This document shows positions 4,032 through 52,450 of a stretch of 64,000 nt of DNA, piece by piece. Source of the DNA: a virus; IMG/VR virus record IMGVR_UViG_3300010354_000073, positions 4,558-68,557 of that record; one strand, written 5' to 3'. Each line of letters begins with the position of its first letter. The first letter of the stretch is position 1. The notes under the pieces are model-generated. The model worked only from the letters and a program-made list of their open reading frames with translations. It was not told the DNA's origin and did not search any database. Position numbers and translations under genes: made by a program.

Positions 4032-4054
4032 TTATAAACTCCGAGTTTTCCTTT

Positions 4055-5191
4055 TTATGAGAGAGCAATTGCCAAGGCAATGGATTTACTATCGACATAC
4101 CTACGATTAGCAGCATCAGATGAACTGGTTGGATCTGCTACGTTTATTACCCTATTATTTAGAATGTTTAAATTAGATGAAAGACCACCAGACAAGGAAA
4201 CATTACCAGCAATAGTAGTATCACCAGTTGTTGAATTAACAATGAATTTGTTCGTGTTAATTGTTAAATTACCTCCAATAGAAGCTCCGCCAGATAAAGT
4301 TACACTACCACTAGAAGTTAAATTGCCAGTGGATGGAGCAACTGTAAATTTAGGAGATCCAGTCGGACCAATTCTAAAAGTACCTTCAATGTAAACATCT
4401 TGATTAAATGTAACGTCGTCACTAAAATCTGAAATACCAGTAACAGAAAAATCTCCGCCAACGGTAACATCTCCTTGTAAATCTGAATCAAGACCAACAG
4501 TTAAATTACCAGCAATTGACAAATCAGAACTAATTACGTTATAATTAAATTTGCCATAAGCAGCAAAACTAATTTCTGTTGTGCTTCCGTACACGATCAA
4601 ACTTTGACCGCCACTCATCTTGATATCAGTTCTTTGATATGTCGATCTTGGATTTAATTCTGTTTCATACTCTAAGTAATTTGCAGAAGGTAAATTTATC
4701 CCAGTATCACTAACACCAATTCTTATCGTTGCAGGATTTGGTCCTTGGTTGGTTGCAAACAAAGATACATTTAATTCTTGATTTGCTGGAACTGTGTATA
4801 GTAAATTTTTTTGTCTTGCAGTTGGAATTTTAACTGATGCTAAAAATCCAGAATTAGTTGGGTTATCTTGTTGTTCACCATGAATGATAAAACTAGTATC
4901 ATCAGCATCACTATAAACAACTAATGATTGGTTGTTACCATAATATATTGTATTTGATTCGTAACTTTCCCCAGGATCAATAACCCAATCGTAAATTACA
5001 TAGTTTGATGCGCTAAAAGATGTCAAAGATCCAGAAGAGACACCAATTCGTATTCTTACTGGATATGGGTTTTTATGAGTTACAGTAATAGTTCCCTCAA
5101 CAATTTTTGAATTGGGAGCAACGTGCAATACTGTCCTTGTTTTTTTAGTTGGAATAATGGACGCTAAATATCCAAATGTGGGTACTGGCAT
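4055..5191 (-). CDS. Virion structural protein (two tandem beta-sandwich-like repeats plus fibre-like C-terminus)
   Basis: 378 aa; duplicated GxLAS...RIGVS...NY..Y domain; C-terminal VINVADPTSSSDAANRRYVD fibre motif; late promoter upstream. Confidence 0.7.
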   Translation of the reverse strand: MPVPTFGYLASIIPTKKTRTVLHVAPNSKIVEGTITVTHKNPYPVRIRIGVSSGSLTSFSASNYVIYDWVIDPGESYESNTIYYGNNQSLVVYSDADDTSFIIHGEQQDNPTNSGFLASVKIPTARQKNLLYTVPANQELNVSLFATNQGPNPATIRIGVSDTGINLPSANYLEYETELNPRSTYQRTDIKMSGGQSLIVYGSTTEISFAAYGKFNYNVISSDLSIAGNLTVGLDSDLQGDVTVGGDFSVTGISDFSDDVTFNQDVYIEGTFRIGPTGSPKFTVAPSTGNLTSSGSVTLSGGASIGGNLTINTNKFIVNSTTGDTTIAGNVSLSGGLSSNLNILNNRVINVADPTSSSDAANRRYVDSKSIALAIALS

Positions 5192-5222
5192 TCTACAAGA
5201 TGCTATTATTCTATGTTATACT

Positions 5223-5233
5223 TATTTATAAAT
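5223..5233. promoter_or_regulatory. Bidirectional T4-type late promoter (TATAAATA on minus, TATAAAT on plus)
   Basis: TATTTATAAAT between divergent starts at 5191 (-) and 5245 (+). Confidence 0.7.
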
Positions 5234-5244
5234 GGGTTGAAAAT

Positions 5245-6033
5245 ATGATTTTTCTTACTGGATGTAAAGGATTTATTGGTCAGCATTTTGCTAGCACTAT
5301 AGGAGATAGTGTAGCTGTTGATTATTTTAATGCTTTTCCTGTTCTAGAGCATTTCAAAAGTTGGGATACGATAGATGAAATAATACACTTAGGAGCAATA
5401 TCTTCAACTACTGAAAAAGATATTAATAAATTGCACAAGTATAATGTAGAATATACTATTGCTTTGTTTGAAAAGGCGATTGAATATCAAATCCCAGTTA
5501 AATATGCATCGTCTGCTTCTGTTTATGGACTATCAGAATGTGGAGAAGTCAACCCTTTAAATTATTATGCAATTACAAAAACTCAAATTGATTATTATGT
5601 TCAAGACAATTTAGATAAATTTAAAAACATTTGTGGATATAGATTTTTTAATGTATATGGAGAAAATGAAAATCACAAAAAAGATCAAGCAAGTCCAGTG
5701 AGTAAATTTACTTGGCAAGCAAAAGAAACAAAACAAATAAAAGTATTTGAAGGATCAGAAAATTATTATCGTGATTTCATTTACGTTGGTGATATAGTTA
5801 ATATTGTTTTAAATCAAACTCAACCTTCTGGAATTTATGATTTGGGAACAGGAGTATCAAAATCATTTCAAACAATTGCAGAATTGGTCGCAAAAAAAGA
5901 GGGGGCGGAAATTAAAACAATTCCCTTCCCCTCAAATTTAAAAGGTAAATATCAAAACAATACTCGTGCAAATATGAACTGGATTGATTACAATTTTACC
6001 ACTGTAGAAGATTATATTAATCGCCCTTCATAA
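5245..6033 (+). CDS. hldD: ADP-L-glycero-D-manno-heptose 6-epimerase-like extended SDR
   Basis: TGCKGFIG Rossmann motif, HLGAISSTTE, YASSASVYG, YxxxK (YAITK), RFFNVYG, RDFIYVGD; start moved to ATG 5245. Confidence 0.85.
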   Translation: MIFLTGCKGFIGQHFASTIGDSVAVDYFNAFPVLEHFKSWDTIDEIIHLGAISSTTEKDINKLHKYNVEYTIALFEKAIEYQIPVKYASSASVYGLSECGEVNPLNYYAITKTQIDYYVQDNLDKFKNICGYRFFNVYGENENHKKDQASPVSKFTWQAKETKQIKVFEGSENYYRDFIYVGDIVNIVLNQTQPSGIYDLGTGVSKSFQTIAELVAKKEGAEIKTIPFPSNLKGKYQNNTRANMNWIDYNFTTVEDYINRPS

Positions 6034-6379
6034 CTCTGTGACTGTCCTCATCGAAATGAGTTGTAGAAAACTCAAATAATTCTGTATCTAAAAGAGCAAT
6101 CATTTGATGACGCATACCCCTAGGGATTTCAAATTTGTCTCCAGCATTTAGAATTGCGTAAGAAGCCTGACTAAAATCATCAGTCATTCCAAAAAATAAT
6201 TTGATTGCTCCTGACTGAACATAAAATGTTTCTCTTTTTTTCTCATGGAAATGCCAAGAGCACTTTTTATCCTTAACCATATAAAGAAGTTTTCCACAAT
6301 ACTCTTCATTATTTACGATCCATTTTTCAAATCCCCACCCCTTTGGAACTAATTTAATATTAAGATCAGAAGAATTCAT
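6017..6379 (-). CDS. Cupin-fold protein (mannose-6-phosphate-isomerase-like)
   Basis: VPKGWG, CSWHFHEKKRETF, EIPRGMRHQM cupin metal-binding motifs. Confidence 0.75.
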   Translation of the reverse strand: MNSSDLNIKLVPKGWGFEKWIVNNEEYCGKLLYMVKDKKCSWHFHEKKRETFYVQSGAIKLFFGMTDDFSQASYAILNAGDKFEIPRGMRHQMIALLDTELFEFSTTHFDEDSHRVMKGD

Positions 6380-6692
6380 TTGCGTTTACTCCTTTATCAT
6401 CAATGTATATATCACCTGCTGGTTTGCCTAGAATTAATTGATGGAACTTACAACCCCAAGATTTAAGTTGAACATAAGTTAAATCTTGAAAATGTTTTTG
6501 AGCAAGAATTCTTGAGTTATCATATCTACCCATTCCTCTAGCGGTAAAATATTTAATTGTATGTCCCTCATCATATAAAGCATTAATTTTTTGAATCCTA
6601 TCTAGTTTGGGAATACTTGTTTCATAATCTCCATCTTCTCTACATTCTGGTTTGTCGCAAATTGTCCCGTCAATATCAATTACATAAATCAT
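6366..6692 (-). CDS. Small HAD-superfamily phosphatase (GmhB/capsule-phosphatase-like)
   Basis: DIDGTI motif I, FTARG motif II, GKP..DIYIDDK motifs III/IV. Confidence 0.8.
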   Translation of the reverse strand: MIYVIDIDGTICDKPECREDGDYETSIPKLDRIQKINALYDEGHTIKYFTARGMGRYDNSRILAQKHFQDLTYVQLKSWGCKFHQLILGKPAGDIYIDDKGVNANEFF

Positions 6693-7464
6693 TTACGTCT
6701 CCTGATGTAAGAATATAAGTTCCTCTATTTTGAACTGCTATGGCAGCTGCCTTATTAGCATATGGTATAGCACATTCTATTCTACCACATTTTAAATAAA
6801 AGTAAACCAAAGCACTTAAAAATGTATCTCCAGCACCAGCTACATCAAATACTGGAACTGGTACTCCAGGATAATGTTTTCCTTTATAAACTGCGCCATC
6901 AGATCCTTTTGTAGTAATTAAAAAAGGATATTCACCTTGTAAACGATTAGTTTCTAATTCGTTCAATTTTAGATAACAATCTGATGGGAGAGTAGTTTTT
7001 TTACTGTCAACAAACACAGGACCATCAAACCAATCAACCAATTCGAATAATTTTTCTTGTGTTAAAAATCCTTTATTATAATCGGATATTATCAAAGCAT
7101 CATATTGATTTTGATCTGGTAATTCATAATTAAATTCATCAACAATATCATTTTCATCCAATCGCATGAGTTGTTGATTTGATTTCTCATCTACATATCT
7201 AGTTTTAATTGGACGATTACTATTGGTTATCATGTAAACTTCAATTCCAAATGCTTGTAGATTCAAACGAACGTTCCATGCCATACCCATAGTTTGATAT
7301 GTTTTTGAGAACTCTAAAATAGGCACTGGAGCTTCTGGACTTAATCTAGAACACTTACCATAAACATACCTATCAATACAAGAATCACCTATAAGAAGAA
7401 CCTTGTATTGTTTTGGTTGTGGAGAAAGTTCCAACTCTGTCGAAAAACCGAACTTCTTTTGCAT
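6676..7464 (-). CDS. PfkB-family sugar kinase, HldE/RfaE kinase-domain-like (start may be TTG 7434)
   Basis: IGDSCIDRY..G...RLSPEAPVP, IISDYNKG, DVAGAGDTF PfkB signature. Confidence 0.85.
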   Translation of the reverse strand: MQKKFGFSTELELSPQPKQYKVLLIGDSCIDRYVYGKCSRLSPEAPVPILEFSKTYQTMGMAWNVRLNLQAFGIEVYMITNSNRPIKTRYVDEKSNQQLMRLDENDIVDEFNYELPDQNQYDALIISDYNKGFLTQEKLFELVDWFDGPVFVDSKKTTLPSDCYLKLNELETNRLQGEYPFLITTKGSDGAVYKGKHYPGVPVPVFDVAGAGDTFLSALVYFYLKCGRIECAIPYANKAAAIAVQNRGTYILTSGDVNDLCN

Positions 7465-7783
7465 ATTGTTGACCTACAACTTCTTTGTCTTTCCAATCTG
7501 ATCCTACTACTAGTATATCAGGATTTATGGATTTTATCAAATCTTCTAAATTTTGTTTTGTATTAAAAATATAAACAGAGTCAATGTATTTTATTGCCTG
7601 TAAAGTTTCTTCTCTATCTTGCTGACAAAAAATTGGTCTTGTCTTGCCCTTCATCTCAGAAACTCTCTCATCTGAATCTATAGCAACAATTAAATAATCT
7701 CCAAGAGATTTGGCATACTTAAAAAGTTTTATATGTCCTGGATGCAGGACATCGAAACAACCATTAACAAAGATTTTTTTCAT
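7385..7783 (-). CDS. Cytidylyl/adenylyltransferase, HldE adenylyltransferase-domain-like
   Basis: NGCFDVLHPGH (HxGH), KGKTRPI, VVGSDW, FSTTKTI. Confidence 0.85.
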   Translation of the reverse strand: MKKIFVNGCFDVLHPGHIKLFKYAKSLGDYLIVAIDSDERVSEMKGKTRPIFCQQDREETLQAIKYIDSVYIFNTKQNLEDLIKSINPDILVVGSDWKDKEVVGQQYAKEVRFFDRVGTFSTTKTIQGSSYR

Positions 7784-9434
7784 TTGGAAAATAAATCATA
7801 CTACTAATTTCAGGTAAAATCAAATATTCAATGTCACTTTTTCTCATGGTTCTAAAGGCATCATTTAAATCTTCTACGATTGTATCGCCAGCTAAATTAA
7901 ATGATGTATTGAATAATATAGGAACTCCAGTGAGATTATAGAATTCTTCGATTAAAGAATAATAATTTAAATTGTGCTCTTTAGTTACAGTTTGAATTCT
8001 ACACGTTCCATCTACATGAGTTATTGCTGGGATCAAATCTCTTTTTGATTCTAACACATCAACAGCATACATCATAAAAGGACTTTCATTCAATCTATCC
8101 ATATCAAACCATTCTCTAGCATGTTCTAATAAAACAGTTCCAGCAAATGGTCTAAAGTATTCTCTTTTTTTAATTTTATTAACTATATCTTTTCCTTTAG
8201 GATTTCTAGGATCAAAAAGAATAGAACGATTGCCAAGAGCACGAGGACCTGCTTCAGATCTTCCTTGACACAAAGCAACTATATTTCCATCAGCAATTAA
8301 TTGTGCCGCATCTTTTGAAGAGCACTCAGATTGCACTTCCCATTCATACAAATTGTATTCATAATTAATGGGTTGACCAAAATATAAATTTGTAATATTT
8401 GTTTTTTTATAATTTGGTAAATATTTTTTGCTTTGATGTTTATAGTAAGTTAATTTGGCAGCTCCCATTGCAGTTCCAGAATCATCAGATATAGGTTCTA
8501 CGTATAAATTTACGTCGCTGGGAAGATTCTTTAGTAATCTGTAATTACTAACACAGTTAAGAGCACACCCACCAGTTAAAATTATATTTTTTTTATTTGT
8601 AAGTGATAGTGCTTTATACACCAATTGCATAATATACAATTCAAATTCTTTTTGAAGAACATAGCAAAGATTTTGTTTCTTTCGTTCTAAATCATCTTCA
8701 TCTTTGGAATAAGAAAGATATTCATACTGCTTCATCCTCACACCAACAAATTTGAATTGATTGTAATCAAACAAATTAAATAATTGTTTATTACCACCAT
8801 CTTCGGATAACATCCATTTTATATTTTTATCTTCTGTTCCATATGAAGATAATCCCATCGTCTTACCACATTCTAAACCATCCCAACCAAGATATTCTGT
8901 AACACCAGAATATACCATGCCAGCACTAATTCTAGAAACAGGATCTACGAATTCGTGTTCTTCATTATCAACTGGAATGTTACCATAACCAACAACAGAT
9001 TTATAAACACAATTACAATCTATTGGAAAAGACATATCAAAAATAGATTCATTTTCTTTACCAAATGATAAATCAGAACCTGCACCATCGATTACTACAC
9101 AAGCAGCGTCATCAAAACCAGAATTATAAAAAGCACATGCTGCATGTAAAGCGTGATGATATTCACTCAAATTTACATAGTTTGTTACTGTTATTCCTGC
9201 CTTTGCAAATAATTTGTAGTATGTTCCAAAATCTGTTTGATGATTATATAAGTGGGTGAATGCAACATAATCTAATTGATTTGTATAATTTGAAATTAAA
9301 TCAATGACATAAACTATTTCTTTGTCATGTTTTTTGTGTGATATTCGTTCTTCCTGGAGATGTAAAACAACTTTATCATCCCGCATTAAACAAATGGCAC
9401 TATCATGTGCAGTATTTACCCCAAGTATCCACAT
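7764..9434 (-). CDS. Carbamoyltransferase (NodU/CmcH family), copy 1
   Basis: HDSA, EERISHKKH, HHALHA, DGAG, GKTMGLSSYG, GGCALNC, GPRALGNRS, REYFRPFA, HVDGTCRIQTV, NTSFN. Confidence 0.92.
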   Translation of the reverse strand: MWILGVNTAHDSAICLMRDDKVVLHLQEERISHKKHDKEIVYVIDLISNYTNQLDYVAFTHLYNHQTDFGTYYKLFAKAGITVTNYVNLSEYHHALHAACAFYNSGFDDAACVVIDGAGSDLSFGKENESIFDMSFPIDCNCVYKSVVGYGNIPVDNEEHEFVDPVSRISAGMVYSGVTEYLGWDGLECGKTMGLSSYGTEDKNIKWMLSEDGGNKQLFNLFDYNQFKFVGVRMKQYEYLSYSKDEDDLERKKQNLCYVLQKEFELYIMQLVYKALSLTNKKNIILTGGCALNCVSNYRLLKNLPSDVNLYVEPISDDSGTAMGAAKLTYYKHQSKKYLPNYKKTNITNLYFGQPINYEYNLYEWEVQSECSSKDAAQLIADGNIVALCQGRSEAGPRALGNRSILFDPRNPKGKDIVNKIKKREYFRPFAGTVLLEHAREWFDMDRLNESPFMMYAVDVLESKRDLIPAITHVDGTCRIQTVTKEHNLNYYSLIEEFYNLTGVPILFNTSFNLAGDTIVEDLNDAFRTMRKSDIEYLILPEISSMIYFPNEKNLC

Positions 9435-9437
9435 AAA

Positions 9438-11147
9438 TCATTCTTTATTTTTATTACTAATTTTTACTAATTTTTGAATTTCTGGCAAATAAAGATATTC
9501 AATATCACTATTGTTTAAAGTTTTTACTGCGTCTTCTATAGTTTCTACTAAAGGATCTCCTCCAAGATTAAAACTGGTATTGAAGAGAATAGGAACTTCG
9601 CTCAGTTTTTCAAATGCATCAATCAGATTATAGTAGTGCTCATTCTGTTCTGGAGTTACCGTTTGAATGCGGCAAGTTCCATCAACGTGAATAACTGAAG
9701 GTATTTTTTCTTCTACTCCTTCTAGACATGATACAGCATACATCATGTGTGGAGTTTCATCACGACCAGCAAGATCAAACCAATCATGAACCTTTTCTTT
9801 CTTAATTGAACATGCAAAAGGTCGGAACCATTCACGACGCTTTACAGCATTGACAATATCCTTACCATCTTTAATGGTGGGATCAAACAGAATAGAACGG
9901 TTTCCAAGAGCACGAGGACCACCTTCAGAACGACCCTGATACATTGTAACGATATTACCTTCTCTAATTAAAGCAGCTACCTCATCATAAGATGTTTCTT
10001 TGATATCAGTAACTCCACAAGTGCTCAAATCAGTTTCATAAGTATCTGGAGAATACTGTGGTCCATAATAAACAGAAGATTGTTTTTGAGTTTTGGTATT
10101 TTCGGTCAATTCATTCCAAACATATTTTGCTCCGCCAATTGAAGTTCCACCATCGTGAGAAATTGGTTCACAATAGATGTTAAGATCTGGAAATTCTTTC
10201 CAATACTTATAATTAGCAACACAGTTCAATCCGTATCCACCACAGACAACAATATTTTTTTCTCCTGTTTCTTCGTGTGCTTTACGAATTAGTTGAACCA
10301 TTCTGTTTGATGATTCTTCTTGGATTTTATATGCCAAATCTTTTTGAATTTGAGTATACTCACTAATTCCATTCACATGTTGCTTAACATCATTTGCTAA
10401 AATTGGATAACGATGAATATTAATTTGAGCAGCATTTGGATAGGTAGGAATAATTAAACTTCTATTCCCATATTCACCATCAAAGAAGGAAGGCAATTCA
10501 TCATTTTGTTTACCATATGGAGCAAGTCCCATTAGTTTACCAGCTTCAATAGCAGGGAATCCACAGTATTGAGTTACTGCTTCATACATCTTTGTCAAAC
10601 CTGGGTATTCTGTTAGGAAAACACCAGATTCTAATTCATGAAAACCTATTGCTGCTTTTGTTCCAATATGCTTATAAACTGTATCAAACGTATTAGGATA
10701 ACTTGCTTGGAAAATAGTTTCAAATTCGTATGAAATATCTGGGCAACCATCGAGTTGAAGAAAACTTCCTGCTCCATCAGCAATCACACAAGCAGCAGTT
10801 TCAAATCCAGAATTGTAGAAACCACACGCAGCGTGCATTTCGTGGTGCGCTACATCAATAAAATGAGTTTCAAATTCAAATTTTTTCTTGGCAAGTTTTC
10901 GCACCCATCCTTCATACATGTCTTCTCCAGTCCAATCAAGTTTGGATCCAGCACGGTGAGTGTGACAAACAACTAAATGATCAATATGATCAACATAATC
11001 AAATACTTTGGCAAGACCCAATAAAGGAGAACCATCGTATTTAAATCTAGACAGGCGCTCTTCTTCTAAGTAAAAAACAACCTCTCCATCAACAAGCAAT
11101 GTCGTGCTGCCGTTATGACCACGAGCAACGGATGCAATAATTGTCAT
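9438..11147 (-). CDS. Carbamoyltransferase (NodU/CmcH family), copy 2
   Basis: EERLSRFKY, HHEMHA, DGAG, GKLMGLAPYG, GPRALGNRS, REWFRPFA, HVDGTCRIQTV, NTSFN. Confidence 0.92.
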   Translation of the reverse strand: MTIIASVARGHNGSTTLLVDGEVVFYLEEERLSRFKYDGSPLLGLAKVFDYVDHIDHLVVCHTHRAGSKLDWTGEDMYEGWVRKLAKKKFEFETHFIDVAHHEMHAACGFYNSGFETAACVIADGAGSFLQLDGCPDISYEFETIFQASYPNTFDTVYKHIGTKAAIGFHELESGVFLTEYPGLTKMYEAVTQYCGFPAIEAGKLMGLAPYGKQNDELPSFFDGEYGNRSLIIPTYPNAAQINIHRYPILANDVKQHVNGISEYTQIQKDLAYKIQEESSNRMVQLIRKAHEETGEKNIVVCGGYGLNCVANYKYWKEFPDLNIYCEPISHDGGTSIGGAKYVWNELTENTKTQKQSSVYYGPQYSPDTYETDLSTCGVTDIKETSYDEVAALIREGNIVTMYQGRSEGGPRALGNRSILFDPTIKDGKDIVNAVKRREWFRPFACSIKKEKVHDWFDLAGRDETPHMMYAVSCLEGVEEKIPSVIHVDGTCRIQTVTPEQNEHYYNLIDAFEKLSEVPILFNTSFNLGGDPLVETIEDAVKTLNNSDIEYLYLPEIQKLVKISNKNKE

Positions 11148-11161
11148 TTATATACCTCAAA

Positions 11162-12295
11162 TCATTTTTTAATGTTTACAGTGTTGGCAAACCCAGATGC
11201 CGAAGATTTATTAATTTTATCTAAAATATTTTGATTAGAATTTTCTAATAATGCTGGGATAATGTTTGGATTATTAGAAGGTTGTTGATTTAATGTTGGG
11301 GGGCAACATGAAGAAGATTGTTCTTGAGTCGGAAGAATTACCTTCACTGTTGGTTTCTTATAGTATTTATTCATCAATTTTTCAACTGATTTTAAAATGA
11401 CTTCCTCGACTTTATCATTCATTGCCATAATGCCATCATTTGTTCTGGCGGATTCTTCATCCATAGAAATTCTAATTGGATCATAAATTCTAAGACCCTC
11501 CCCCATATCAAGAACTTCAAATTTATCAGAATTTGGATAAGAAATATTTTCTTTAAACGTAGATCCAACAACAACGACAGCTGGAGTTCCTACGGTATGG
11601 GCAATATGTTGACCAACAGAATCACAACCAATGAAAAGATCTGCTTCTTTAATTACCCCTGCCCAATGTCTGATTGGCATTCCAGAAGGAGCAGCTACTG
11701 GATCTTTTACGCCTTCTAATTGAAAATCTAATTGCAATTCTGACATAACAATTACAGAATATTTTTTCTGTAATTGCTTGACAATGCTTATAACATTATT
11801 ATATTCAAAACTTCTTCCAGAAGAATCGACAATCAAATTGCCCATTACTTGAACACCGCGACCAAATGGTTGAAAAACCACCGTCTTTTCTTTTTTAGTT
11901 TTTTCTCTTACTTCAGTAACAACAAATTTACCATTTATTTCTTCTTCTCTTGATAATTTGATTGTTGGGGGAGGAAGATCTCTAATCCCCTTTTTATTAA
12001 TTGCTATATCAAATGCTTGGGATAAATTACATTTTTGATTATAGTATTCCCAAATACGATATGGTTCTGGAGTTTCAATATCGGTATGAACTATTTTATC
12101 CTTAAAAAGATTTTTGTGCCAATTGTCGTAAACGTGCGAATATAGGTTAGGATGACCTTTAAAAAAATCAGTTCCCCCTTCGCAGACAATTACGAAATCT
12201 TCCTCTGGATGGTCTTCTTTATACTTTTCAAACGCTGGAATAGAACATAATACTCTGCCTGCACCACCGTTCACAAAAAATGATTTTGGTCTCAT
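11162..12295 (-). CDS. Glycosyltransferase, GT9/heptosyltransferase-like GT-B fold
   Basis: N-terminal GGAGRVLCSIPA (GxxGD-like), VVFQPFG, IKEADLFIGCDSVGQHIAHTVGTPAVVVVGST (GT9 DS..H.A motif). Confidence 0.75.
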   Translation of the reverse strand: MRPKSFFVNGGAGRVLCSIPAFEKYKEDHPEEDFVIVCEGGTDFFKGHPNLYSHVYDNWHKNLFKDKIVHTDIETPEPYRIWEYYNQKCNLSQAFDIAINKKGIRDLPPPTIKLSREEEINGKFVVTEVREKTKKEKTVVFQPFGRGVQVMGNLIVDSSGRSFEYNNVISIVKQLQKKYSVIVMSELQLDFQLEGVKDPVAAPSGMPIRHWAGVIKEADLFIGCDSVGQHIAHTVGTPAVVVVGSTFKENISYPNSDKFEVLDMGEGLRIYDPIRISMDEESARTNDGIMAMNDKVEEVILKSVEKLMNKYYKKPTVKVILPTQEQSSSCCPPTLNQQPSNNPNIIPALLENSNQNILDKINKSSASGFANTVNIKK

Positions 12296-12335
12296 ATCGG
12301 GTCAATTAATAAATGATTTATTTTTAACACATACT

Positions 12336-12342
12336 TATTTAG
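12336..12342 (-). promoter_or_regulatory. Late promoter CTAAATA for the sugar-modification operon
   Basis: TATTTAG on plus strand, 40 nt upstream of the GT9 start and just downstream of a terminator. Confidence 0.55.
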
Positions 12343-12346
12343 GCAC

Positions 12347-12374
12347 AAAAAAAGAGGCGGATTACCGCCTCTTC
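12347..12374 (-). terminator. Rho-independent terminator
   Basis: GAAGAGGCGG-TAAT-CCGCCTCTTTTTTT on minus strand after the 12381 stop. Confidence 0.85.
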
Positions 12375-12380
12375 AAAAGA

Positions 12381-13070
12381 TCACCATACAAATCCGTCAA
12401 TTTGAGGAGTTCTAGGATCGTCAGGGAAAGGAATCATGTGTACTCCCCAACCAGCAAATTTTTCATATGTTTGCTCTAGTTTTTCAATATATTCTGGCAT
12501 CTTTGCTTTAATTTCTTCTGGAAGATCTCCATTTTCTAGATCTTCTTTTGCTCCAGCAAGAATAGCATCTCTAACCATTACATGCTGCTCCATAGAAATC
12601 CATGGTTGCTTCCATGCATATGGCTTAACAAATTCACCTTTTTCTAGATCATACTTGAATGCTGTTGGCTCATAAGTATGATCTGGTGATGTTGGATCTG
12701 GACGCTCATATAATGTTACTCCATCAATTTTATACTCTTTTTGAGGATAACCAGCAGCTCTTGAAGTATCGATTGCGTGATATAGTGAAGCAATTAAAGC
12801 GTGTTCATCATTTGATCCTGGAGTTAGAAGAACCGCAGTACAATCTAAACCAGCTCTTAATGCAGCACCTTTTTCTTCATCTTCGGATCCATCTGTAGGA
12901 ATGAATGATTGGGAAAATAGAAGATTTCCTGTTGCATTTTCAACAAAAACATAAAGTTTTTCAGGACCTTCATAAGTCCATTCCGCAGTTAATCCTAACT
13001 CAGATGTTTGTGCTAAGTAATCATCTGGTAAGGAATAAGTAAACGTTTTTGAAATAGTTTTGATTGCCAT
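12381..13070 (-). CDS. Hypothetical protein, possible tail-fibre assembly chaperone
   Basis: 229 aa after fibre-tip paralogues; C-terminal VRDAIL...YIEKL...W...FPDDP resembles tail-assembly-chaperone ends. Confidence 0.55.
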   Translation of the reverse strand: MAIKTISKTFTYSLPDDYLAQTSELGLTAEWTYEGPEKLYVFVENATGNLLFSQSFIPTDGSEDEEKGAALRAGLDCTAVLLTPGSNDEHALIASLYHAIDTSRAAGYPQKEYKIDGVTLYERPDPTSPDHTYEPTAFKYDLEKGEFVKPYAWKQPWISMEQHVMVRDAILAGAKEDLENGDLPEEIKAKMPEYIEKLEQTYEKFAGWGVHMIPFPDDPRTPQIDGFVW

Positions 13071-13098
13071 AATCCTTTTTACGTGTCCTTTATACGAT

Positions 13099-13106
13099 TA
13101 TTTATA
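13099..13106 (-). promoter_or_regulatory. T4-type late promoter TATAAATA
   Basis: Exact consensus upstream of the 13070 start. Confidence 0.7.
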
Positions 13107-13107
13107 A

Positions 13108-13998
13108 TTACTTGTAACTAATACGGATCAGTCCTGGAGTTCCTTGTTGACCATAGCAACAACCACCACAGGTCCATCCAGTCGCTCCTCCAACGCCAGG
13201 AACATAATTATGCTCACTGAAACCACCACCCCAAGGAAGTTGTGTCAATGCGTTGTGTAGAAGGCAATAACCACAACCACTATTTTCACATTGAGTTGCT
13301 GGTAACCATCCTCCTTTACCATTTACAAGACCGCCTGGATATGGGAACCATTGCTTATTCCAGCAGTGATTATCATAGCACCACATAAATGCTGCACCAG
13401 GATTTCCAACAGCGCCAGTATCTGCCCCATAAAATAGAGCGCAAGGACCACCAAGGCACCCAGTTCTTGCTCCACCATCCTGAGTTAAGACATACCATGT
13501 GCAGCAGCACATAAAGCAGCAAGAACAACCACCATGACCACCAGTTGCACAATAATTACTTAAACCATATCCTGTGATAAAAGTTTTTCCTCCTGGTTGA
13601 CCGCAAGCATTACCATCTCTCCCTTGTCCTGGTTGACCAATCTCCATTGCGTAGGTGCAACCAGCAATACTAGATCCTTGAACTCTTTTATAAGCATATG
13701 CCCCAGAACCACCTGGAACACCTCTCGAACAACAGCAACTAGAACCACCACCACCACCAGCACCCCAAATTTCGAAAATAACATCAGTTACTCCAGTTGG
13801 AACTGTCCAAGAAGGATAATCATAATAGTTATAATCAGTTGTCCAACCTTGACAAGTTGCACCACAGAAAGCTGGGATGTATTGAACTCTATAACCAGTA
13901 GATGGAAATGGAGGTAATTTTGTTGTTGTGTTTGGTTGAGCAGCAGCTGCAATTGAACTTTCAGATACTATATCTAGTAGTGTTCTTAAACTAGCCAT
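13108..13998 (-). CDS. Cys/Gly-rich fibre-tip/adhesin-like protein, paralogue 1
   Basis: WTVPTGVTDVIFEIWGAGGGGG...GTPGLIRISY glycine-rich domain frame; about 24 Cys by manual count. Confidence 0.75.
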   Translation of the reverse strand: MASLRTLLDIVSESSIAAAAQPNTTTKLPPFPSTGYRVQYIPAFCGATCQGWTTDYNYYDYPSWTVPTGVTDVIFEIWGAGGGGGSSCCCSRGVPGGSGAYAYKRVQGSSIAGCTYAMEIGQPGQGRDGNACGQPGGKTFITGYGLSNYCATGGHGGCSCCFMCCCTWYVLTQDGGARTGCLGGPCALFYGADTGAVGNPGAAFMWCYDNHCWNKQWFPYPGGLVNGKGGWLPATQCENSGCGYCLLHNALTQLPWGGGFSEHNYVPGVGGATGWTCGGCCYGQQGTPGLIRISYK

Positions 13999-14023
13999 TT
14001 TTACTTCCTTTATTGGTAATTAT

Positions 14024-14950
14024 TTAGTTACAGAAATGATATGCACAGTTAGCGTTCACACCAACCCAACAAGAACAATATGTAATTCTAATTAAACCTC
14101 CGCCACCTCTCCAACCATAACAGCAACCACCACCACAACTAGTAGCAGATGGGGATCCAACTCCAGGTAATGTATTATTACAGTTTGCGTTGAATGCCCA
14201 TGGCGTAGTTCCCATACAATATGTCCAATCATTAATACAAGCATTACCTGAAGTATTAGACATAATATGACCGCCAAGATCGTCAATTAATTTTGCTGGA
14301 TAAGCTAATCCTATTTTGGCATAGCAATTATTTGCACTATTATAAGTTCTAAAGAATCCTGGTCTTCCTGGAATCATACAATCTCCGCCATATGCACAAG
14401 CACAACTAGTAACAGGATCATAACCACCACAACCAGTCCAATAAACTCTATCCAAACATCTAAAATCAGAAGACCAGAAAGCATAACAGCATGTCTTTCC
14501 TGGCAATCCTCCTTCTGCACACAAGTTAGATAAGTTGCAACCAGTAATCCACGACTTACAACCTTGAATTCCTACACAACAAGCAGAACAGCAAGTTGGT
14601 GGCGCTACGTATAAAGAATAACACCAACCACCTTGAATTTGAGCTCCTGTTAAAGTTTTTCTAACATATGCTCCAGATCCTCCTGGCATTCCTTGTTGGC
14701 AGCAGCAAGCACCAGCACCAGACCCGCCGCCGCCCCACATCTCAAATGTAATTTGAGTTGTTCCACATGGAACACACCAGTTAAGTAAGCAGTAAGAGTG
14801 ATAAGAAGTATCGCAGTTTTCTAAATTGCAATAGGGGGCAAAAACAAACTGTTTGCCATCTCTTACCTTGTTAAAAGCACCAACGCTTCCGTTAGTAGCT
14901 GCAACAGTGGATGCAAATTCTTTGTTTAATAATTGTCTTAAATTGGCCAT
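14024..14950 (-). CDS. Cys/Gly-rich fibre-tip/adhesin-like protein, paralogue 2
   Basis: WCVPCGTTQITFEMWGGGGSG...GGGGLIRITY; about 34 Cys by manual count. Confidence 0.75.
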   Translation of the reverse strand: MANLRQLLNKEFASTVAATNGSVGAFNKVRDGKQFVFAPYCNLENCDTSYHSYCLLNWCVPCGTTQITFEMWGGGGSGAGACCCQQGMPGGSGAYVRKTLTGAQIQGGWCYSLYVAPPTCCSACCVGIQGCKSWITGCNLSNLCAEGGLPGKTCCYAFWSSDFRCLDRVYWTGCGGYDPVTSCACAYGGDCMIPGRPGFFRTYNSANNCYAKIGLAYPAKLIDDLGGHIMSNTSGNACINDWTYCMGTTPWAFNANCNNTLPGVGSPSATSCGGGCCYGWRGGGGLIRITYCSCWVGVNANCAYHFCN

Positions 14951-14966
14951 TTTTTATGTTTCCCCC

Positions 14967-15896: not shown

Positions 15897-15911
15897 CTGA
15901 ATATACCTATA

Positions 15912-16235
15912 TTAGTTAGTAATGATTGACCATCCGTAAGCAGAACCAGTATAGATTAATCCAAGTGATGCATTTTTAATATCAAAATCTAGATCTTCTG
16001 CTAAGTTAGCAATCTTATTTCCATTTCTTAAAATTACCGCTTTATTAGTTCCACAGTTTCCAGCTGCATCAATAAAATTGATACGATCTCCAATAAGAGG
16101 GTTTGCTGGAAGAGTAATATTAAAAGTTGCAGCTGTTGTATCAATTAACAAAATCTGACTAGCTAAAGCTGAGTAGTTTGAAGTTACTGCTACTGATACT
16201 CTTGTTTCAGATATTGCTGAAAGTGAACGTCCCAT
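15912..16235 (-). CDS. Small tail-fibre-associated protein
   Basis: IDTTAATFNITLPANPLIGDRINFIDAAG...GW domain typical of T4-like fibre/baseplate proteins. Confidence 0.7.
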   Translation of the reverse strand: MGRSLSAISETRVSVAVTSNYSALASQILLIDTTAATFNITLPANPLIGDRINFIDAAGNCGTNKAVILRNGNKIANLAEDLDFDIKNASLGLIYTGSAYGWSIITN

Positions 16236-16264
16236 TGTACTTTAATCTCCTTTATTAGTATTTA

Positions 16265-16588
16265 TCAAAGAGCAGATTCTTCTACACCATAAACAGAGAT
16301 ACTTACTCCAGCAGTATCTGCCCAAGCAACAATTCTCTTCGCTGCCTGCAATGCGACACCAGTTCTTTCTAGAACTCCGTAACCAGCAATTTGAGCATTA
16401 TATTCAATATACTCTGCTGCAGTTGGGGTAGCAGCGGCAGCAAGAGCAACTCTTACGTTAACTGCAGTTGCATTAGTATTAACAACGTTGAAGTTTACAT
16501 ATGCTGTAACATCAGCAGGAACTGTATAAATTGTTGTTAATGTGTTAGCAGTTAATGAGGTTTGTGTCCCCAAAATTCCAGAAGCCAT
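16265..16588 (-). CDS. Small virion structural protein
   Basis: MASGILG...YTVPA...EYIEYN...LERTG; resembles the repeated domain of 4055..5191. Confidence 0.7.
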   Translation of the reverse strand: MASGILGTQTSLTANTLTTIYTVPADVTAYVNFNVVNTNATAVNVRVALAAAATPTAAEYIEYNAQIAGYGVLERTGVALQAAKRIVAWADTAGVSISVYGVEESAL

Positions 16589-16623
16589 TTAATATTCTCC
16601 TTAATAATCCGATTGTTTATTAG

Positions 16624-16631
16624 TATTTATA
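16624..16631 (-). promoter_or_regulatory. T4-type late promoter TATAAATA
   Basis: Exact consensus upstream of 16588. Confidence 0.7.
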
Positions 16632-16636
16632 ACTAA

Positions 16637-16655
16637 GGGGAGTTAAATACTCCCC
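16637..16655 (-). terminator. Stem-loop / probable terminator
   Basis: GGGGAGT-TAAAT-ACTCCCC immediately after the 16663 stop; weak U-tract. Confidence 0.55.
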
Positions 16656-16662
16656 CATTTGA

Positions 16663-19600
16663 TCAAGCTCCGCCAGCCCAGAAGGTAAATCCTTTTGTTT
16701 TGGTTTTCTTGTCCACGTATGATTTAACAGCTCTTTGTGTAGGAACTTTAGAATTGCTATTAGCAGATAAAGTTACATCAGCAGAGAATTCACTAATGCT
16801 TTCACCTAACTGAGCTCCGATAGAACCGAGACGTAGGGATGATAGACCAGACAAGTCGAACGAAGATGCATTCAAAGTAGTGCTACCAGTTGCCTGGTTT
16901 ACTTTGAAATAACGTCCAACAGTAAAGTTACCATCTTGATCCGTTGAAACGAAGAACACACGACCTGGGAATGCCTCTGTAACTTCATTTCCTGGAGCTG
17001 GTGCTGATAATGGAGAATTCGGGAAGTTAGTTGTTACTTTTCCACCAGTTCCAATATTCAAGAAGTCATGACCAGTCAATCTTACTTGAGAATATAGATA
17101 TCTAATCTTAAATCCTTGTTGATCGTAAGATGGGGTTGGTTTAGTTTGAGCAAGAACAATCAATGTTGTTCCAGTTGTATCAGTAGCAACATTCGTTACT
17201 TGCATGAATTCATTATCTAGTTTTACATAATCATTGACTAGAACCCCAGTAGAAGATAATACTCTAATAGTTCCATCGGAAGATAACATATCACGAAGAG
17301 TTGTTGTTTGTGCAGGAACTTTAATTTGAATTGCTCTTACAGTAACTGAAGATGAATGAGTAGCAGCAGTTGTTCCTTCTTGACCACGAGTTACAGTAAT
17401 TGAAGTTGCGGTTGGGAATGCAACTACGCCCATCATTTCATTATTAATAATAATATAACCACCAATAGTGATACCAGTAATTGAAGTTACATAAATTGTT
17501 GAATCTGAAGTTGAACTAATAGGTGCAGTTAATGTTGTTGAAGTTCCTGTTTGATATCTAATTAAAGTTGATAGTCCATTATGTGCAGCAGCAGCAGAAC
17601 CAAGTAATCCTCTAGTTACAGATAAAGTTCCTCTTCCTGATGGTGCGGAGTAAGAAGAATTAGCAACAACATAAGTAAATGGATCTTCTCCTGCTCCACC
17701 AGGACCAGTAATAAACTCAATTGATCCACCTGGCTTTGGAGCTGCAGATAGACCACTTAATGCAAAAGTATATCCTGATGTACCTTGATTTGCTGAACTA
17801 TTATTAACTAAAGTGGCGGTTGCTCCTGTTTCTTGACCAATAATACCTTCATTTTGAGCAAACGTTCCTTTCAAAGGTCTATAAAGAAGTTTTTGAACAC
17901 TGGATTGCCAAGAAATAATTTCACCAATTGCTCCAGAAGTTAGACCAGTGATTCTCTCACCACTGTTGAAACTTCCAACTAAAGAAACTGTAGTGTAATT
18001 TAATTCTTTACCATCAATATTTCCATTAAGTGTTGCCTCATCTGTGTTATATCCAGAAGAAACAATAGCATAATTACCCCACGAAGAGTTACCAGCAAGG
18101 GATCTAATGTTTCCACCACGAGTTGCTGCATAAGAAATATGAGCATAATAAGTAAAGCAAGAAACAATTTCCGAATTACCATTATTAGTGATCCAGAATC
18201 CTACTCCACCCTGCTCGTGAATCTGAGTGAACGAGTCAAATAGCATGGATTTGTTGGATGGTGTTGCTGTGCCCTCCCACTTAGAATGTACATTTCCATC
18301 AACAATTGCTCCGACACCAGTGTTAGAAAAAGCAGAACATTGTGAAATATATGGAGATTTAGTTGTTGGAGAATTCGGATTTAATCTTAAAAATACTCCT
18401 TTAACGGTCGCTGTATTCATATCTTTTGGATCTGATACAGAAGGTACAAATCCATTCATACCATCCATCACAAGGTCTTTGAGCATTGTTTTGTTGCTCA
18501 TGAAGAACATGGTGGAATTTTCATTAGTAATTGCATCAACAGCAGTGATTGCAATATCAGTGATGCCAGCTTCAAATGTATCAGAAGTTGTCCATGCTCC
18601 ACCAGTTAATGGTTTGATTATAATTACTGATCCTCCTGATTGAACATCAAGAATCATACCTGTTTTTGGTGCTCCACCACCAGCCTGAACAGTTGCTCCG
18701 AGAACTCTATACTGGGGTAAAGGAACAGTTGCTAAAGTAAGTTTTACGGTAGAACTATTTCCAACAGCTGGTTTAATAACAGAAGTTCTTAAGTTATCGC
18801 CAACAATTGCTACTTGCTCTGGAACAATAATAGGAAGTGTTTCGTAATAAGTTCCTGCTTTTACATAAATTGTTGCTGGACCTGTAATGTTGTCGCAAGC
18901 ATGACGTAAAGAAGCAAATGCATTTGTTATATTTTCTCCATCATTTAAATTATTACCATTTACTGTGACGTAATAAACAGGATCAGTTTTATTATTTTCT
19001 TTCCATTCTGGATATCCAGTTGATCCAACAGTTAATACTTGACCTTGTTGACCAATTGGCAATCTTGCAGGACCAGATCCAGCTTGATAAACAGTATCAC
19101 CAGAAGTCGTTAATACGTTTGTTTGTGCTCCTTGAGCAAGGGAATTCCAATATGTTCCTGTAGCATCAGTTTCTGGAGTGTTATTAGTAGAAGTAGCAAC
19201 ACAAATATAACTATTGCTATTTCTTGATACAGCGTCTCCTGGTTGATAAGTTGTAACGGTAGTCCAAGTTCCTTTCCAGGTAAATCCTCCAACAACAAAA
19301 CTCCACTCTGTTGGGTTTGCTGATGGGATTTTATTACTGTTAGTAACTTTTGCTACGTAAGAGTTACCACCAAGTAATACAACATCTCCAGGCTTAAACG
19401 TTGCAGAATCATTCCAAGTGCCAACAACTTTGAAACCAGTTGTTAAAATTTCCCAATCAGAATCTAAAAAGAGGTTTGGCGCTTTGTTTACGTTAATTGT
19501 CTTTGCAACATAGCTGTAACCACCATGAGTTACGATATCGCCAGGTTGGAATTGATCGGTATTATTCCATGTATCTTCAAATCTTAACCCATCTAGATAC

Positions 19601-19929
19601 GCTGAAAAATTAGGTTCTACAAAACTAGCGCCAGATGTATGCGGAACAATGGTTCTGTAAAGAACATTACCGTACTTTACAATATCATTTAATTTGTAGA
19701 AAGTGGATGCCGCCCAATTTCCTTTATTGAAAATACCTTCTGTATGAAGTTGCCATCTACCATTATCGGTAGAATACCAGAAAGATTGGTTGGACGCTGA
19801 TGTGTGATTTGAAACACATACGTAAGTGTTGGCGCCAAATTTTACAATGTCATCAATAACATATGCAGTATTGACTGTCCAATCACCTCTCCAATTAAAT
19901 TTTAATCTACCTAATCTGAAATCTGCCAT
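16663..19929 (-). CDS. Tail fibre-like protein with N-terminal Trp repeats and a beta-helix-like region
   Basis: MADFRLGRLKFNWRGDW; repeated W....Y..GDxV..GG.SYV modules (ChW/CBM5/12-like); YYVTVNGNNLNDG...IYVKAGTYYE pectin-lyase-like start. Confidence 0.75.
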   Translation of the reverse strand: MADFRLGRLKFNWRGDWTVNTAYVIDDIVKFGANTYVCVSNHTSASNQSFWYSTDNGRWQLHTEGIFNKGNWAASTFYKLNDIVKYGNVLYRTIVPHTSGASFVEPNFSAYLDGLRFEDTWNNTDQFQPGDIVTHGGYSYVAKTINVNKAPNLFLDSDWEILTTGFKVVGTWNDSATFKPGDVVLLGGNSYVAKVTNSNKIPSANPTEWSFVVGGFTWKGTWTTVTTYQPGDAVSRNSNSYICVATSTNNTPETDATGTYWNSLAQGAQTNVLTTSGDTVYQAGSGPARLPIGQQGQVLTVGSTGYPEWKENNKTDPVYYVTVNGNNLNDGENITNAFASLRHACDNITGPATIYVKAGTYYETLPIIVPEQVAIVGDNLRTSVIKPAVGNSSTVKLTLATVPLPQYRVLGATVQAGGGAPKTGMILDVQSGGSVIIIKPLTGGAWTTSDTFEAGITDIAITAVDAITNENSTMFFMSNKTMLKDLVMDGMNGFVPSVSDPKDMNTATVKGVFLRLNPNSPTTKSPYISQCSAFSNTGVGAIVDGNVHSKWEGTATPSNKSMLFDSFTQIHEQGGVGFWITNNGNSEIVSCFTYYAHISYAATRGGNIRSLAGNSSWGNYAIVSSGYNTDEATLNGNIDGKELNYTTVSLVGSFNSGERITGLTSGAIGEIISWQSSVQKLLYRPLKGTFAQNEGIIGQETGATATLVNNSSANQGTSGYTFALSGLSAAPKPGGSIEFITGPGGAGEDPFTYVVANSSYSAPSGRGTLSVTRGLLGSAAAAHNGLSTLIRYQTGTSTTLTAPISSTSDSTIYVTSITGITIGGYIIINNEMMGVVAFPTATSITVTRGQEGTTAATHSSSVTVRAIQIKVPAQTTTLRDMLSSDGTIRVLSSTGVLVNDYVKLDNEFMQVTNVATDTTGTTLIVLAQTKPTPSYDQQGFKIRYLYSQVRLTGHDFLNIGTGGKVTTNFPNSPLSAPAPGNEVTEAFPGRVFFVSTDQDGNFTVGRYFKVNQATGSTTLNASSFDLSGLSSLRLGSIGAQLGESISEFSADVTLSANSNSKVPTQRAVKSYVDKKTKTKGFTFWAGGA

Positions 19930-51723: not shown

Positions 51724-52002
51724 CTAACTGTTGGCGAACTCGATGTACTCCAGGTCGCCATTCTTGCGTGCCTTCGCTATCACTGAACCGAGGGACAATC
51801 CTCCCAGGTCGGGTGATGCAATGATGGCAGAAAGATGGGCGATGAAGCGATCAGTGCCCCTGAAGATGTACGCCTTCTCGGTGTTGCTCTGGAAGATCAA
51901 TTCGACGTAGTTGCCATCAATCTCCACGTTGGCGATTGCACTCGACTCGTCTACACTGAAGGAGCGATAGATCGGGGCGGCGTTGATGATGAAGGAAGGC
52001 AT
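51724..52002 (-). CDS. KTSC-like domain protein 1
   Basis: ESSAIANVEI....VELIF.....Y.F......SLGS.I..A pattern resembles KTSC; similar to 56017..56241. Confidence 0.55.
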   Translation of the reverse strand: MPSFIINAAPIYRSFSVDESSAIANVEIDGNYVELIFQSNTEKAYIFRGTDRFIAHLSAIIASPDLGGLSLGSVIAKARKNGDLEYIEFANS

Positions 52003-52449: not shown

Positions 52450-52450
52450 C

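Follow-up and report, generated by a model that had tools for sequence, protein, structure and literature searches.

Fibre-linked cassette for ADP-heptose synthesis, GT9-fold transfer and O-carbamoylation in T4-like cyanophages: a candidate system for the decoration of fibre tips

The cyanomyoviruses P-SSM2, S-SSM7, S-CAM1 and S-CAM3 carry, in their host recognition cluster, a cassette of sugar-related genes catalogued as T4-GC 302–308 (PSSM2_307–313 in P-SSM2 and SSSM7_120–133 in S-SSM7). The genes of this cassette were named lipopolysaccharide (LPS) genes by Sullivan et al. (2005), the cassette has been described as “not known whether functional or stuffer DNA” (PMC3037559), and passages of later papers place such genes in a “host recognition cluster” and propose that they modify the host O-chain (PMC7029224, PMC12801897). 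We studied a member of this cassette located at positions 5245–12342 of a 64,000-nucleotide stretch of DNA (hereafter “the window”; positions 4,558 to 68,557 of IMG/VR record IMGVR_UViG_3300010354_000073, a 68.6 kb, 34% complete fragment of an uncultured T4-like cyanophage). In gene content, gene order and genomic place, and in its convergent epimerase gene and flanking fibre genes, the cassette of the window agrees with the annotations of S-CAM1, S-CAM3, S-SSM7 and P-SSM2, and the core set is common to all 49 full-span IMG/VR loci, defined as those reaching from the large fibre gene to the homologue of the fibre gene at 4055–5191 (a fibre gene therefore follows the HldD-like gene in 49 of 49 by selection). 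It differs in having two carbamoyltransferase genes, versus one in S-CAM1, S-CAM3 and P-SSM2, and in having none of the oxygenase, halogenase and denV genes that S-SSM7 carries in addition. The cassette is real, well delimited and already catalogued, and the window provides a further member with two carbamoyltransferases. Literature searches retrieved no claim that cyanophage particles carry heptose or any glycan. The original prediction, which was made from the letters of the window and which rightly noted the LPS-related label in other cyanomyophages, was that the phage makes its own activated heptose and installs carbamoylated heptose on its fibre proteins. Decoration of the phage's own fibre tips with carbamoyl-heptose is a hypothesis that we consider the best supported of the readings weighed below, with a probability of about 0.45.

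Several described systems resemble parts of this cassette. TibC and AAH are cytoplasmic enzymes that use ADP-heptose to heptosylate an adhesin (TibA and AIDA-I); the GT9 fold of TibC is shared by the phage transferase, the gene for which likewise adjoins adhesin (fibre) genes. TibC has a cysteine-ligated iron finger and a dodecamer-forming extension, and PDB titles describe it as “iron-containing dodecameric”; its first 95 residues have no counterpart in the model of the phage transferase, which also lacks conserved iron-finger cysteines. The glycans of the mimivirus fibril and the chlorovirus capsid are virus-encoded, with giant viruses also encoding nucleotide-sugar synthesis, and glycosylation of mycobacteriophage capsids and tails was reportedly described by Freeman et al. 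in 2023. The cassette studied here would work in the same way, with a virus using its own transferases to decorate its own particle, but it is known from genes alone, the transferase families and sugars of the mycobacteriophage, mimivirus and chlorovirus systems are different, and we know of no report of heptose or carbamoyl decoration for the virion glycans of these three. WaaC and WaaF, the GT9 enzymes of bacterial LPS, act on a Kdo/heptose core that the phage host lacks: a passage of PMC4515613 states that marine Synechococcus LPS contains neither heptose nor Kdo, as had been stated in the original prediction for heptose, and this host therefore does not offer the acceptor usual for GT9 enzymes. 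In Pseudomonas, the HepII residue of the LPS core bears carbamoyl-heptose (7-O-carbamoylation), and the putative carbamoyltransferase WapO (PA5005) is encoded beside WaaC and WaaF, according to part of PMC8005017. This system likewise combines a GT9 heptosyltransferase with an enzyme of the carbamoyltransferase family. It is cellular and acts on the lipid A–Kdo-bound core, whereas the cassette is phage-encoded and has one or two carbamoyltransferases; the two are likened by description.

Seven minus-strand open reading frames (ORFs), from 12295 down to 6017, form the operon of the window, with neighbours overlapping or lying 3–14 nucleotides (nt) apart. Structural genes flank the cassette on both sides: the tail-fibre gene at 4055–5191 and the gene for a 1343-aa virion protein below, and a fibre cluster at 12381–19929 above. 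The eight genes, their tight overlap and their structural flanks are as originally predicted, and family matches agree with the enzyme names given at that time.

An AF2 model of the transferase based on 76 relatives had a pLDDT of 89, with a core at residues 1–313 and a disordered tail. VIA-align gave a Z score of 24.0 with the Veillonella GT9 protein 3tov (root-mean-square deviation 3.4, 284 residues aligned), 21.6 with WaaF (1psw), 20.3 with TibC (4rap, for which the alignment was restricted to TibC residues 96–396) and 19.5 with WaaC (2h1h), versus 12.7 or less with other solved glycosyltransferases. The GT-B fold is common to the transferase, WaaC and WaaF (2gt1, 2h1h, 6dfe and 1psw) and 3tov, with Z scores of 19–24 over 254–284 residues, and Foldseek agreed on the GT9 entries (E values of 2e-11 to 1e-8). 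A PDB search with the single sequence found nothing meaningful, and identity to WaaC, WaaF and 3tov is 10–15%. The phage transferase is best described as a divergent branch of GT9, since PF01075 scored below its gathering cut-off (20.5 bits versus 22, over residues 208–252 only) and matched only 38 of the 76 family members (E≤0.01, best 1.1e-9). Chains 7wff_a, 7f9o_6 and 9grx_1 of the chloroplast NDH-PSI supercomplex also matched the GT9-fold model, with Z scores (18.8–19.3) like that of WaaC.

The transferase shares with WaaC and WaaF the donor-side D-(S/T)-G..H motif, here D-S-x-G-x-H, with D225, S226 and H230 invariant or nearly so and aligned to WaaC D261..H266. It has an arginine or lysine at the position of WaaC K192 (R161, present in 75 of 76 sequences, aligned to WaaC 192–193); we take WaaC residues 261–266 and K192 to be functional in its donor site. 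The N-terminal half has a signature of its own, consisting of GGxGR, E77-P78-Y79 (EPY) and Q142-P143 (QPxG). In a HMMER alignment, R14 (arginine in 71 of 76 sequences) fell on WaaC Asp13, in a stretch scoring only −3.3 bits, and hhalign produced no alignment of the N-terminal half. Conservation in this half, which corresponds to the acceptor side, was 2.04 bits per column versus 1.96 for the donor half, in phages of very different hosts, and the identity of distant members was 32% in the acceptor half versus 30% in the donor half. No conserved cysteine column was found in the 76 sequences, the most frequent being cysteine in 40. A structural comparison of this protein with TibC versus WaaC and WaaF, suggested with the original prediction, therefore did not favour TibC: the analogy with TibC is functional and is not one of family membership.

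The transferase clade is phage-borne and essentially phage-only. The protein collection contained more than 4,700 homologues, and 426 representative clusters matched the transferase at E≤1e-3; none of the contigs carrying ten sampled, more distant clusters exceeded 44 kb. A pattern derived from a sub-alignment of the family gave 51 matches, one of them a weak relative, in a cellular scan of one genome per species (185,579 species), whereas relatives made up 359 of 471 and 474 of 536 matches in scans of viral contigs. In 80 diverse viral loci, a carbamoyltransferase gene lay immediately downstream from that of the transferase in 21, and the heptose-pathway partners were the adenylyltransferase (24 loci), kinase (18), HldD (17), cupin (14) and HAD protein (8). 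Gene order and strand were variable in these loci, and some had heptose genes without a carbamoyltransferase gene. This joining of the same genes in various orders ties the transferase to ADP-heptose and carbamoylation, and ADP-heptose is its presumed donor. Members of the family were also found in the tail genes of larger phages and of Vibrio phages. In five loci (L233, L238, L240, L242 and L247), the order was transferase, carbamoyltransferase and a second transferase-family gene. In 80 close loci, gene order was almost invariant, with one carbamoyltransferase gene (CT-A) directly after that of the transferase; the heptose genes were more mobile, being reversed in L198 and L211. In the 49 full-span loci, genes for the transferase, CT-A, adenylyltransferase, kinase, cupin and HldD were always present and that for the HAD protein was present in 45, whereas the second carbamoyltransferase (CT-B) was present in 24 of these loci and in 26 of the 61 loci holding both transferase and adenylyltransferase genes.

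The genes upstream from the operon encode three paralogous glycine/cysteine-rich proteins with a cysteine content of 13%. The AF2 model of such a protein had a moderate pLDDT (63.6) and matched the cyanophage Pam3 fibre (7ypx_A; Z score of 16.6, 193 residues aligned), the Bxb1 tail tip (13.8) and the ALK glycine-rich domain (7.5–9.8), with the next match at 4.4. The modelled fold, shared with solved virion fibre and tail-tip proteins, identifies the Gly/Cys-rich proteins as fibre or tip proteins. The gene for a 229-aa protein, for which a weak Atlas match to the Phage_tail_APC cluster (score 0.88) serves as a lead only, always lies between the Gly/Cys-rich genes and the transferase gene in close loci, and the two genes for 107-aa fibre-related proteins are syntenic in related loci.

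Linkage between these fibre genes and the transferase was assessed with an alignment of the Gly/Cys-rich proteins as the only query, yielding 79 viral loci from the best 80 of 161 relatives; a scan with the single protein encoded at 13108–13998 had yielded four loci, and the alignment was used instead. The transferase gene was present in 65 of the 79 loci, corresponding to 65 of the 65 informative ones, and, paired with the carbamoyltransferase gene, adjoined the fibre cluster across three orientations, at a median distance of 671 nt (maximum 3,659) from its last gene; the transferase gene was inverted in three of these loci. The other 14 loci could not be scored because their sequence ends 0–1,986 nt past the last fibre-cluster gene. 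In three loci (L161, L165 and L166), the whole fibre cluster is inverted and lies on the other side of the transferase–carbamoyltransferase pair, still adjacent to it. In a tblastn search of the phage record collection, the Gly/Cys-rich and 229-aa proteins were found only in 11 S-CAM1 and S-CAM3 records, all with the cassette. The co-occurrence of the module with cysteine-rich fibres, also suggested with the original prediction, therefore holds when the fibre genes are taken as the starting point, but not in the reverse direction. Complex prediction for transferase residues 1–315 with the Gly/Cys-rich protein encoded at 14024–14950 gave a score of 0.00 (mark 0.32), which has no bearing either way.

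The sugar-nucleotide enzymes were assigned from TIGR and Pfam matches, which agree with the assignments initially made (HldE-like kinase and adenylyltransferase, HldD, HAD protein and cupin). TIGR02198, TIGR02199 and TIGR02197 were the best models for the kinase, adenylyltransferase and epimerase, respectively, all with scores below the equivalog cut-offs. The kinase translation contains a GAGDT motif. The ORF of the adenylyltransferase shares 80 nt (7385–7464) with that of the kinase, an overlap also annotated in S-CAM1, and in three distant loci (L055, L057 and L061) the two activities lie in a single ORF of about 400 codons; both split and fused forms of this pair therefore occur. The HldD-like protein is 36% identical to Escherichia coli RfaD (E value of 1e-46), with the SSA and YxxxK stretches retained. 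It lacks about 35 N-terminal dinucleotide-binding residues of RfaD and its glycine motif reads GCKGFIG, so its cofactor binding may differ from that of the E. coli enzyme. The 108-aa HAD protein contains DIDGT and DD motifs and weakly matches the capsule-biosynthesis phosphatase model TIGR01689 (E value of 2e-6), with no GmhB model among its matches; a GmhB-like role is presumed for it.

No SIS-type GmhA was found in the record of the window (TIGR00441), or in four complete relatives and five further records (PF13580). In its place, the cupin may be the sedoheptulose-7-phosphate/heptose-7-phosphate isomerase, as lyxose and mannose isomerases interconvert ketoses and manno-configured aldoses, the type of reaction catalysed by GmhA, and no GmhA is encoded. 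Alignment of the cupins revealed a full metal-binding motif, consisting of an invariant S-x-H-x-H-x2-K-x-E and a later histidine. The best near-full-length matches of the cupin profile to the PDB were D-lyxose ketol-isomerase (2y0o, E value of 1.1e-6) and D-lyxose/D-mannose isomerase (7nzo, 3.7e-6), followed by L-ribose isomerases. A cupin gene was present in 14 of the 18 diverse loci with a kinase gene, and two of the other four loci end at the kinase; the remaining two had no detectable cupin in the stretch examined, one of them belonging to a complete genome of 162 kb in which GmhA is likewise absent. None of the five further records has an SIS gene, whether or not the cupin is present, rendering an anticorrelation of cupin and GmhA uninformative. 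Alternatively, a host enzyme, rather than the cupin, may supply the isomerase step. In the public records for S-CAM3, S-CAM1, S-SSM7 and P-SSM2, the HAD phosphatase is annotated as “phosphoheptose isomerase” and the cupin as “cysteine dioxygenase”, both apparently wrongly.

The carbamoyltransferases CT-A and CT-B are 40% identical. Each has a Kae1-like N-domain and a YrdC-like C-domain scoring above the Pfam cut-offs (Carbam_trans_N and Carbam_trans_C: 67.7 and 196.6 bits for CT-A; 92.7 and 206.5 bits for CT-B), consistent with the two NodU/CmcH-type enzymes initially proposed. Neither is NodU itself, since the NodU equivalog model gave 129–159 bits, against a cut-off of 1000. The PDB sequence matches of CT-A included carbamoyltransferase 7xb6 (E value of 9e-53), TobZ (1.9e-50), the novobiocin carbamoyltransferase 9s2t and GdmN, with values ranging from about 1e-45 to 1e-52 for the TobZ, novobiocin and GdmN enzymes. 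At least 8,000 carbamoyltransferase homologues were found in the protein collection, with the CT-A matches listed saturated by cyanophage sequences. In passages of some papers (PMC9146016, PMC10436341), the carbamoyltransferase is read as a pyrimidine-synthesis gene, a reading that does not fit its TobZ/NodU domains.

Transcription signals were examined around the operon and the epimerase gene. An intrinsic-terminator-like hairpin ends the fibre operon right before the transferase operon, as predicted, and is retained in S-CAM1 and S-CAM3. The motif that follows it reads CCTAAATA, agreeing at seven of eight positions with the cyanomyovirus late motif given in a passage of PMC2984593, NATAAATA. 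Its position after the terminator is conserved, with identical letters (CCTAAATA) in S-CAM3 and the canonical form (CATAAATA) in S-CAM1. A late promoter before the transferase operon is plausible, since S-CAM3 retains both hairpin and motif at the same location and S-CAM1 has the motif in its canonical form. This part of the prediction is borne out in part. ATAAATA was strongly enriched in the intergenic DNA of the window, which makes up 5.6% of the bases but contains 7 of the 16 copies, each preceding a minus-strand gene; enrichment was weaker for CTAAATA (3 of 13 copies). The separate late-type promoter that had been claimed for the HldD-like gene was not confirmed: the perfect TATAAATA at 5223–5230 is on the minus strand, in the orientation of the fibre gene that it would serve, and is conserved in S-CAM1 and S-CAM3, whereas the plus strand upstream of the HldD-like gene holds only TATAAATG, 11 nt before the ATG, a reading conserved in neither S-CAM1 nor S-CAM3. 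Two metatranscriptome runs from two studies contained near-identical contigs over 28 of 30 and 21 of 30 bins of positions 4000–13500; they were not used as evidence of expression because contigs from RNA libraries show neither transcription nor strand nor timing.

Table 1. Positions of the cassette genes, the neighbouring fibre genes and the transcription signals in the window.
Feature	Coordinates	Strand	Basis or remark
Tail-fibre protein, 378 aa	4055..5191	-	phrog_11338 “tail fiber protein”, E 9e-120; low-side flank of cassette
TATAAATA late-promoter-like motif of fibre gene 4055–5191	5223..5230	-	Exact match, 32 nt before ATG at 5191
HldD-like ADP-glyceromanno-heptose 6-epimerase, 262 aa	5245..6033	+	ATG at 5245; TIGR02197 E 2e-57; convergent with operon
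Metal-binding cupin, 120 aa	6017..6379	-	Pfam Cupin_2
Small cap-less HAD-type phosphatase, 108 aa	6366..6692	-	TIGR01689 E 2e-6 (below cut-off); phrog_1238 E 4e-28
HldA/HldE-domain-I-like heptose-7-phosphate kinase, 262 aa	6676..7464	-	TIGR02198 E 5e-39; PfkB E 2.6e-14
HldC/HldE-domain-II-like heptose-1-phosphate adenylyltransferase, 132 aa	7385..7783	-	TIGR02199 E 2.5e-35; CTP_transf_like E 2.7e-18
O-carbamoyltransferase CT-B, 556 aa	7764..9434	-	Carbam_trans_N and Carbam_trans_C above cut-off
O-carbamoyltransferase CT-A, adjoins transferase, 569 aa	9438..11147	-	Carbam_trans_N and Carbam_trans_C above cut-off
GT9-fold glycosyltransferase, 377 aa	11162..12295	-	AF2 model fold matches; PF01075 sub-threshold
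CTAAATA late-promoter-like motif	12336..12342	-	41 nt before transferase ATG
Intrinsic-terminator-like hairpin ending fibre operon	12351..12374	-	10 bp stem, 6 GC pairs, T-run
Possible chaperone for fibre assembly, 229 aa	12381..13070	-	phrog_9740
Three paralogous glycine/cysteine-rich fibre proteins, 296/308/309 aa	13108..15896	-	phrog_4205; Pfam Gly_rich_2 E 3.4e-10
Two 107-aa fibre-related proteins	15912..16588	-	PHROG matches: tail-fibre and tail-spike families
1088-aa tail-fibre protein with carbohydrate-binding modules	16663..19929	-	phrog_9851 “tail fiber protein” 1785 bits; CBM_5_12 E 3.8e-19

Further along the structural region, the window has two giant minus-strand ORFs, of 2704 aa (29568–37682) and 2827 aa (39603–48086). 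The G+C content of the window is about 32–40%, with the exception of a G+C-rich stretch at 52000–53400 and about 55400–55800 (0.578 in the 52–54 kb bin versus about 0.32–0.40 elsewhere), in which no convincing ORF, tRNA or Rfam family at gathering score was detected.

We propose that the cassette encodes a self-contained cytoplasmic sugar-decoration pathway belonging to the host-recognition module of the phage. Sedoheptulose-7-phosphate would be converted to D-glycero-D-manno-heptose-7-phosphate, probably by the cupin, phosphorylated at C1 by the kinase and then dephosphorylated at C7 by the HAD phosphatase. Adenylylation by the HldC-like enzyme and epimerisation by the HldD-like enzyme would yield ADP-L,D-heptose, the heptose of which would be put on an acceptor by the GT9-fold transferase, and carbamoyl phosphate and ATP would then serve for O-carbamoylation of the sugar by one or two enzymes of the TobZ/NodU type. 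The likeliest acceptors would be the phage's own Gly/Cys-rich fibre-tip proteins, encoded just upstream, which would be modified before or during fibre assembly, at a late stage. This acceptor is favoured by the adjacency maintained through rearrangements, the phage-only nature of the clade, the conserved acceptor half, the heptose- and Kdo-free LPS of the host and the late-type signals. A more extensive version is also conceivable but rather doubtful: the phage would make ADP-heptose de novo in a heptose-free host, with the cupin in place of GmhA, and the phage-only GT9 clade would coat the fibre tips with mono- or di-carbamoylated heptose. In that case, no virion protein would have been known before to be heptosylated or carbamoylated, and the clade would represent another line of protein heptosyltransferases, independent of TibC and AAH. 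A sub-case in which the heptose is S-linked to cysteine, suggested by the arginine in place of the catalytic aspartate and by the cysteine content of the acceptors, is highly improbable.

Several observations weigh against decoration of the fibre tips. The enzymatic steps, donor, acceptor and timing proposed are read from gene content, folds, synteny and linkage, and the late timing would follow from a promoter motif. Linkage to the fibre genes is in part inheritance within one phage lineage, the loci being related, and it equally fits an enzyme modifying the host receptor to which these fibres bind. The Gly/Cys-rich gene was found in only four of the 80 diverse loci, and some close loci retain the transferase and carbamoyltransferase genes but have lost, over a distance of 10 kb, any heptose gene. 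One subgroup of the transferase (L008–L025) lies far from fibre genes, between nrdA and nrdB, with genes for a 2-oxoglutarate (2OG)-Fe(II) oxygenase and a small cytidylyltransferase-like protein; in L026 and L040, the transferase gene is located in islands with sulfotransferase, APS-kinase-like, GT2 and methyltransferase genes, the island of L040 adjoining the gene for a 1779-aa collagen-repeat protein. The region is described in part of PMC7029224 as a hypervariable island, and it also accumulates unrelated genes, such as denV and a halogenase gene in S-SSM7. By fold, TibC is no closer to the transferase than WaaF or WaaC are, the Z scores being tied within about 1–2 units, and the transferase family shows no conserved cysteines from which an iron finger like that of TibC could be built; the chemistry of the transferase may also differ from that of WaaC, as a nearly invariant arginine appears to occupy the position of the catalytic Asp13 in the weak alignment mentioned above. 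Finally, the TobZ and NodU relatives of known substrate act on small-molecule glycosides. The fibre-decoration interpretation is thus strengthened by the fibre linkage and the phage-only transferase family, and weakened by the absence of a closer relationship to TibC, the misassigned promoter and the location of distant members away from fibres.

The same evidence was considered for other acceptors. Carbamoyl-heptose might instead be added to host LPS or to another envelope glycan at the cytoplasmic face, masking the receptor against superinfection, loss of progeny on debris or recognition by grazers, in which case linkage to fibre genes would reflect co-evolution of receptor binding and receptor masking, with which it is equally compatible. 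Remodelling of the host surface has been proposed for P-SSM2 and for host-recognition clusters, in passages of PMC1079782, PMC2984593, PMC7029224 and PMC12801897, GT9 enzymes of known acceptor are mostly LPS-core heptosyltransferases, the Pseudomonas core provides a precedent for the product (in the part of PMC8005017 cited above), and members of the transferase family occur in glycan-tailoring islands of other phages. This reading is a serious competitor, which we nevertheless consider less likely than decoration of the fibre tips: marine Synechococcus LPS lacks the usual acceptors, heptose and Kdo (the same passage of PMC4515613), the conservation of the acceptor half across phages of unrelated hosts would not be expected for a host-specific glycan target, the transferase family is nearly absent from cellular genomes, and no flippase, lipid-carrier primer or membrane protein was identified in the operon, as judged from family matches and translations read without a transmembrane predictor.

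The product could also be a soluble or lipid-linked carbamoylated heptoside acting as a metabolite, signal or inhibitor, akin to the tailoring by TobZ, NovN, GdmN and NodU. The closest solved carbamoyltransferases do act on small-molecule glycosides or macrolactams, the S-SSM7 island also contains genes for a tryptophan halogenase, a methyltransferase-domain protein and 2OG oxygenases, and sulfotransferase and methyltransferase genes are neighbours elsewhere, but this is improbable, as family matches revealed no scaffold-forming enzyme (non-ribosomal peptide synthetase, polyketide synthase or aglycone synthase) in the cassette, the core set comprises only the enzymes of donor synthesis, a single transferase and one or two carbamoyltransferases, and the strict adjacency to fibre genes would be left unexplained. 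Finally, the enzyme might heptosylate hydroxymethyl-pyrimidines in phage DNA, in the way that GT-B enzymes of T4 glucosylate hydroxymethylcytosine. A universal acceptor of this kind would be in keeping with a GT-B enzyme that is restricted to phages and conserved in its acceptor half, and one subgroup of the family is located between ribonucleotide reductase genes. We reject this reading, which is extremely improbable, because a gene of the ThyA/dCMP-hydroxymethylase family (PF00303) was found in none of five complete transferase-bearing genomes; in addition, the fold is that of GT9, unlike other solved glycosyltransferases, and the operon, which a late-type motif precedes, belongs to the fibre module.

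The cassette has been filed as a set of LPS genes for twenty years. New support for a role at the virion is provided by the phage-only GT9 clade, its conserved acceptor half and the presence of the transferase gene in all informative fibre loci. If the host surface were remodelled, the cassette would constitute a receptor-masking system in a host with heptose-free LPS. If carbamoyl-heptose is placed on the fibre tips, then a post-translational sugar code, invisible in the sequences of the fibres, would underlie the host range, particle stability and resistance to grazing or proteases of major marine phages, and the heptosyltransferase clade would be a new tool for protein glycosylation.

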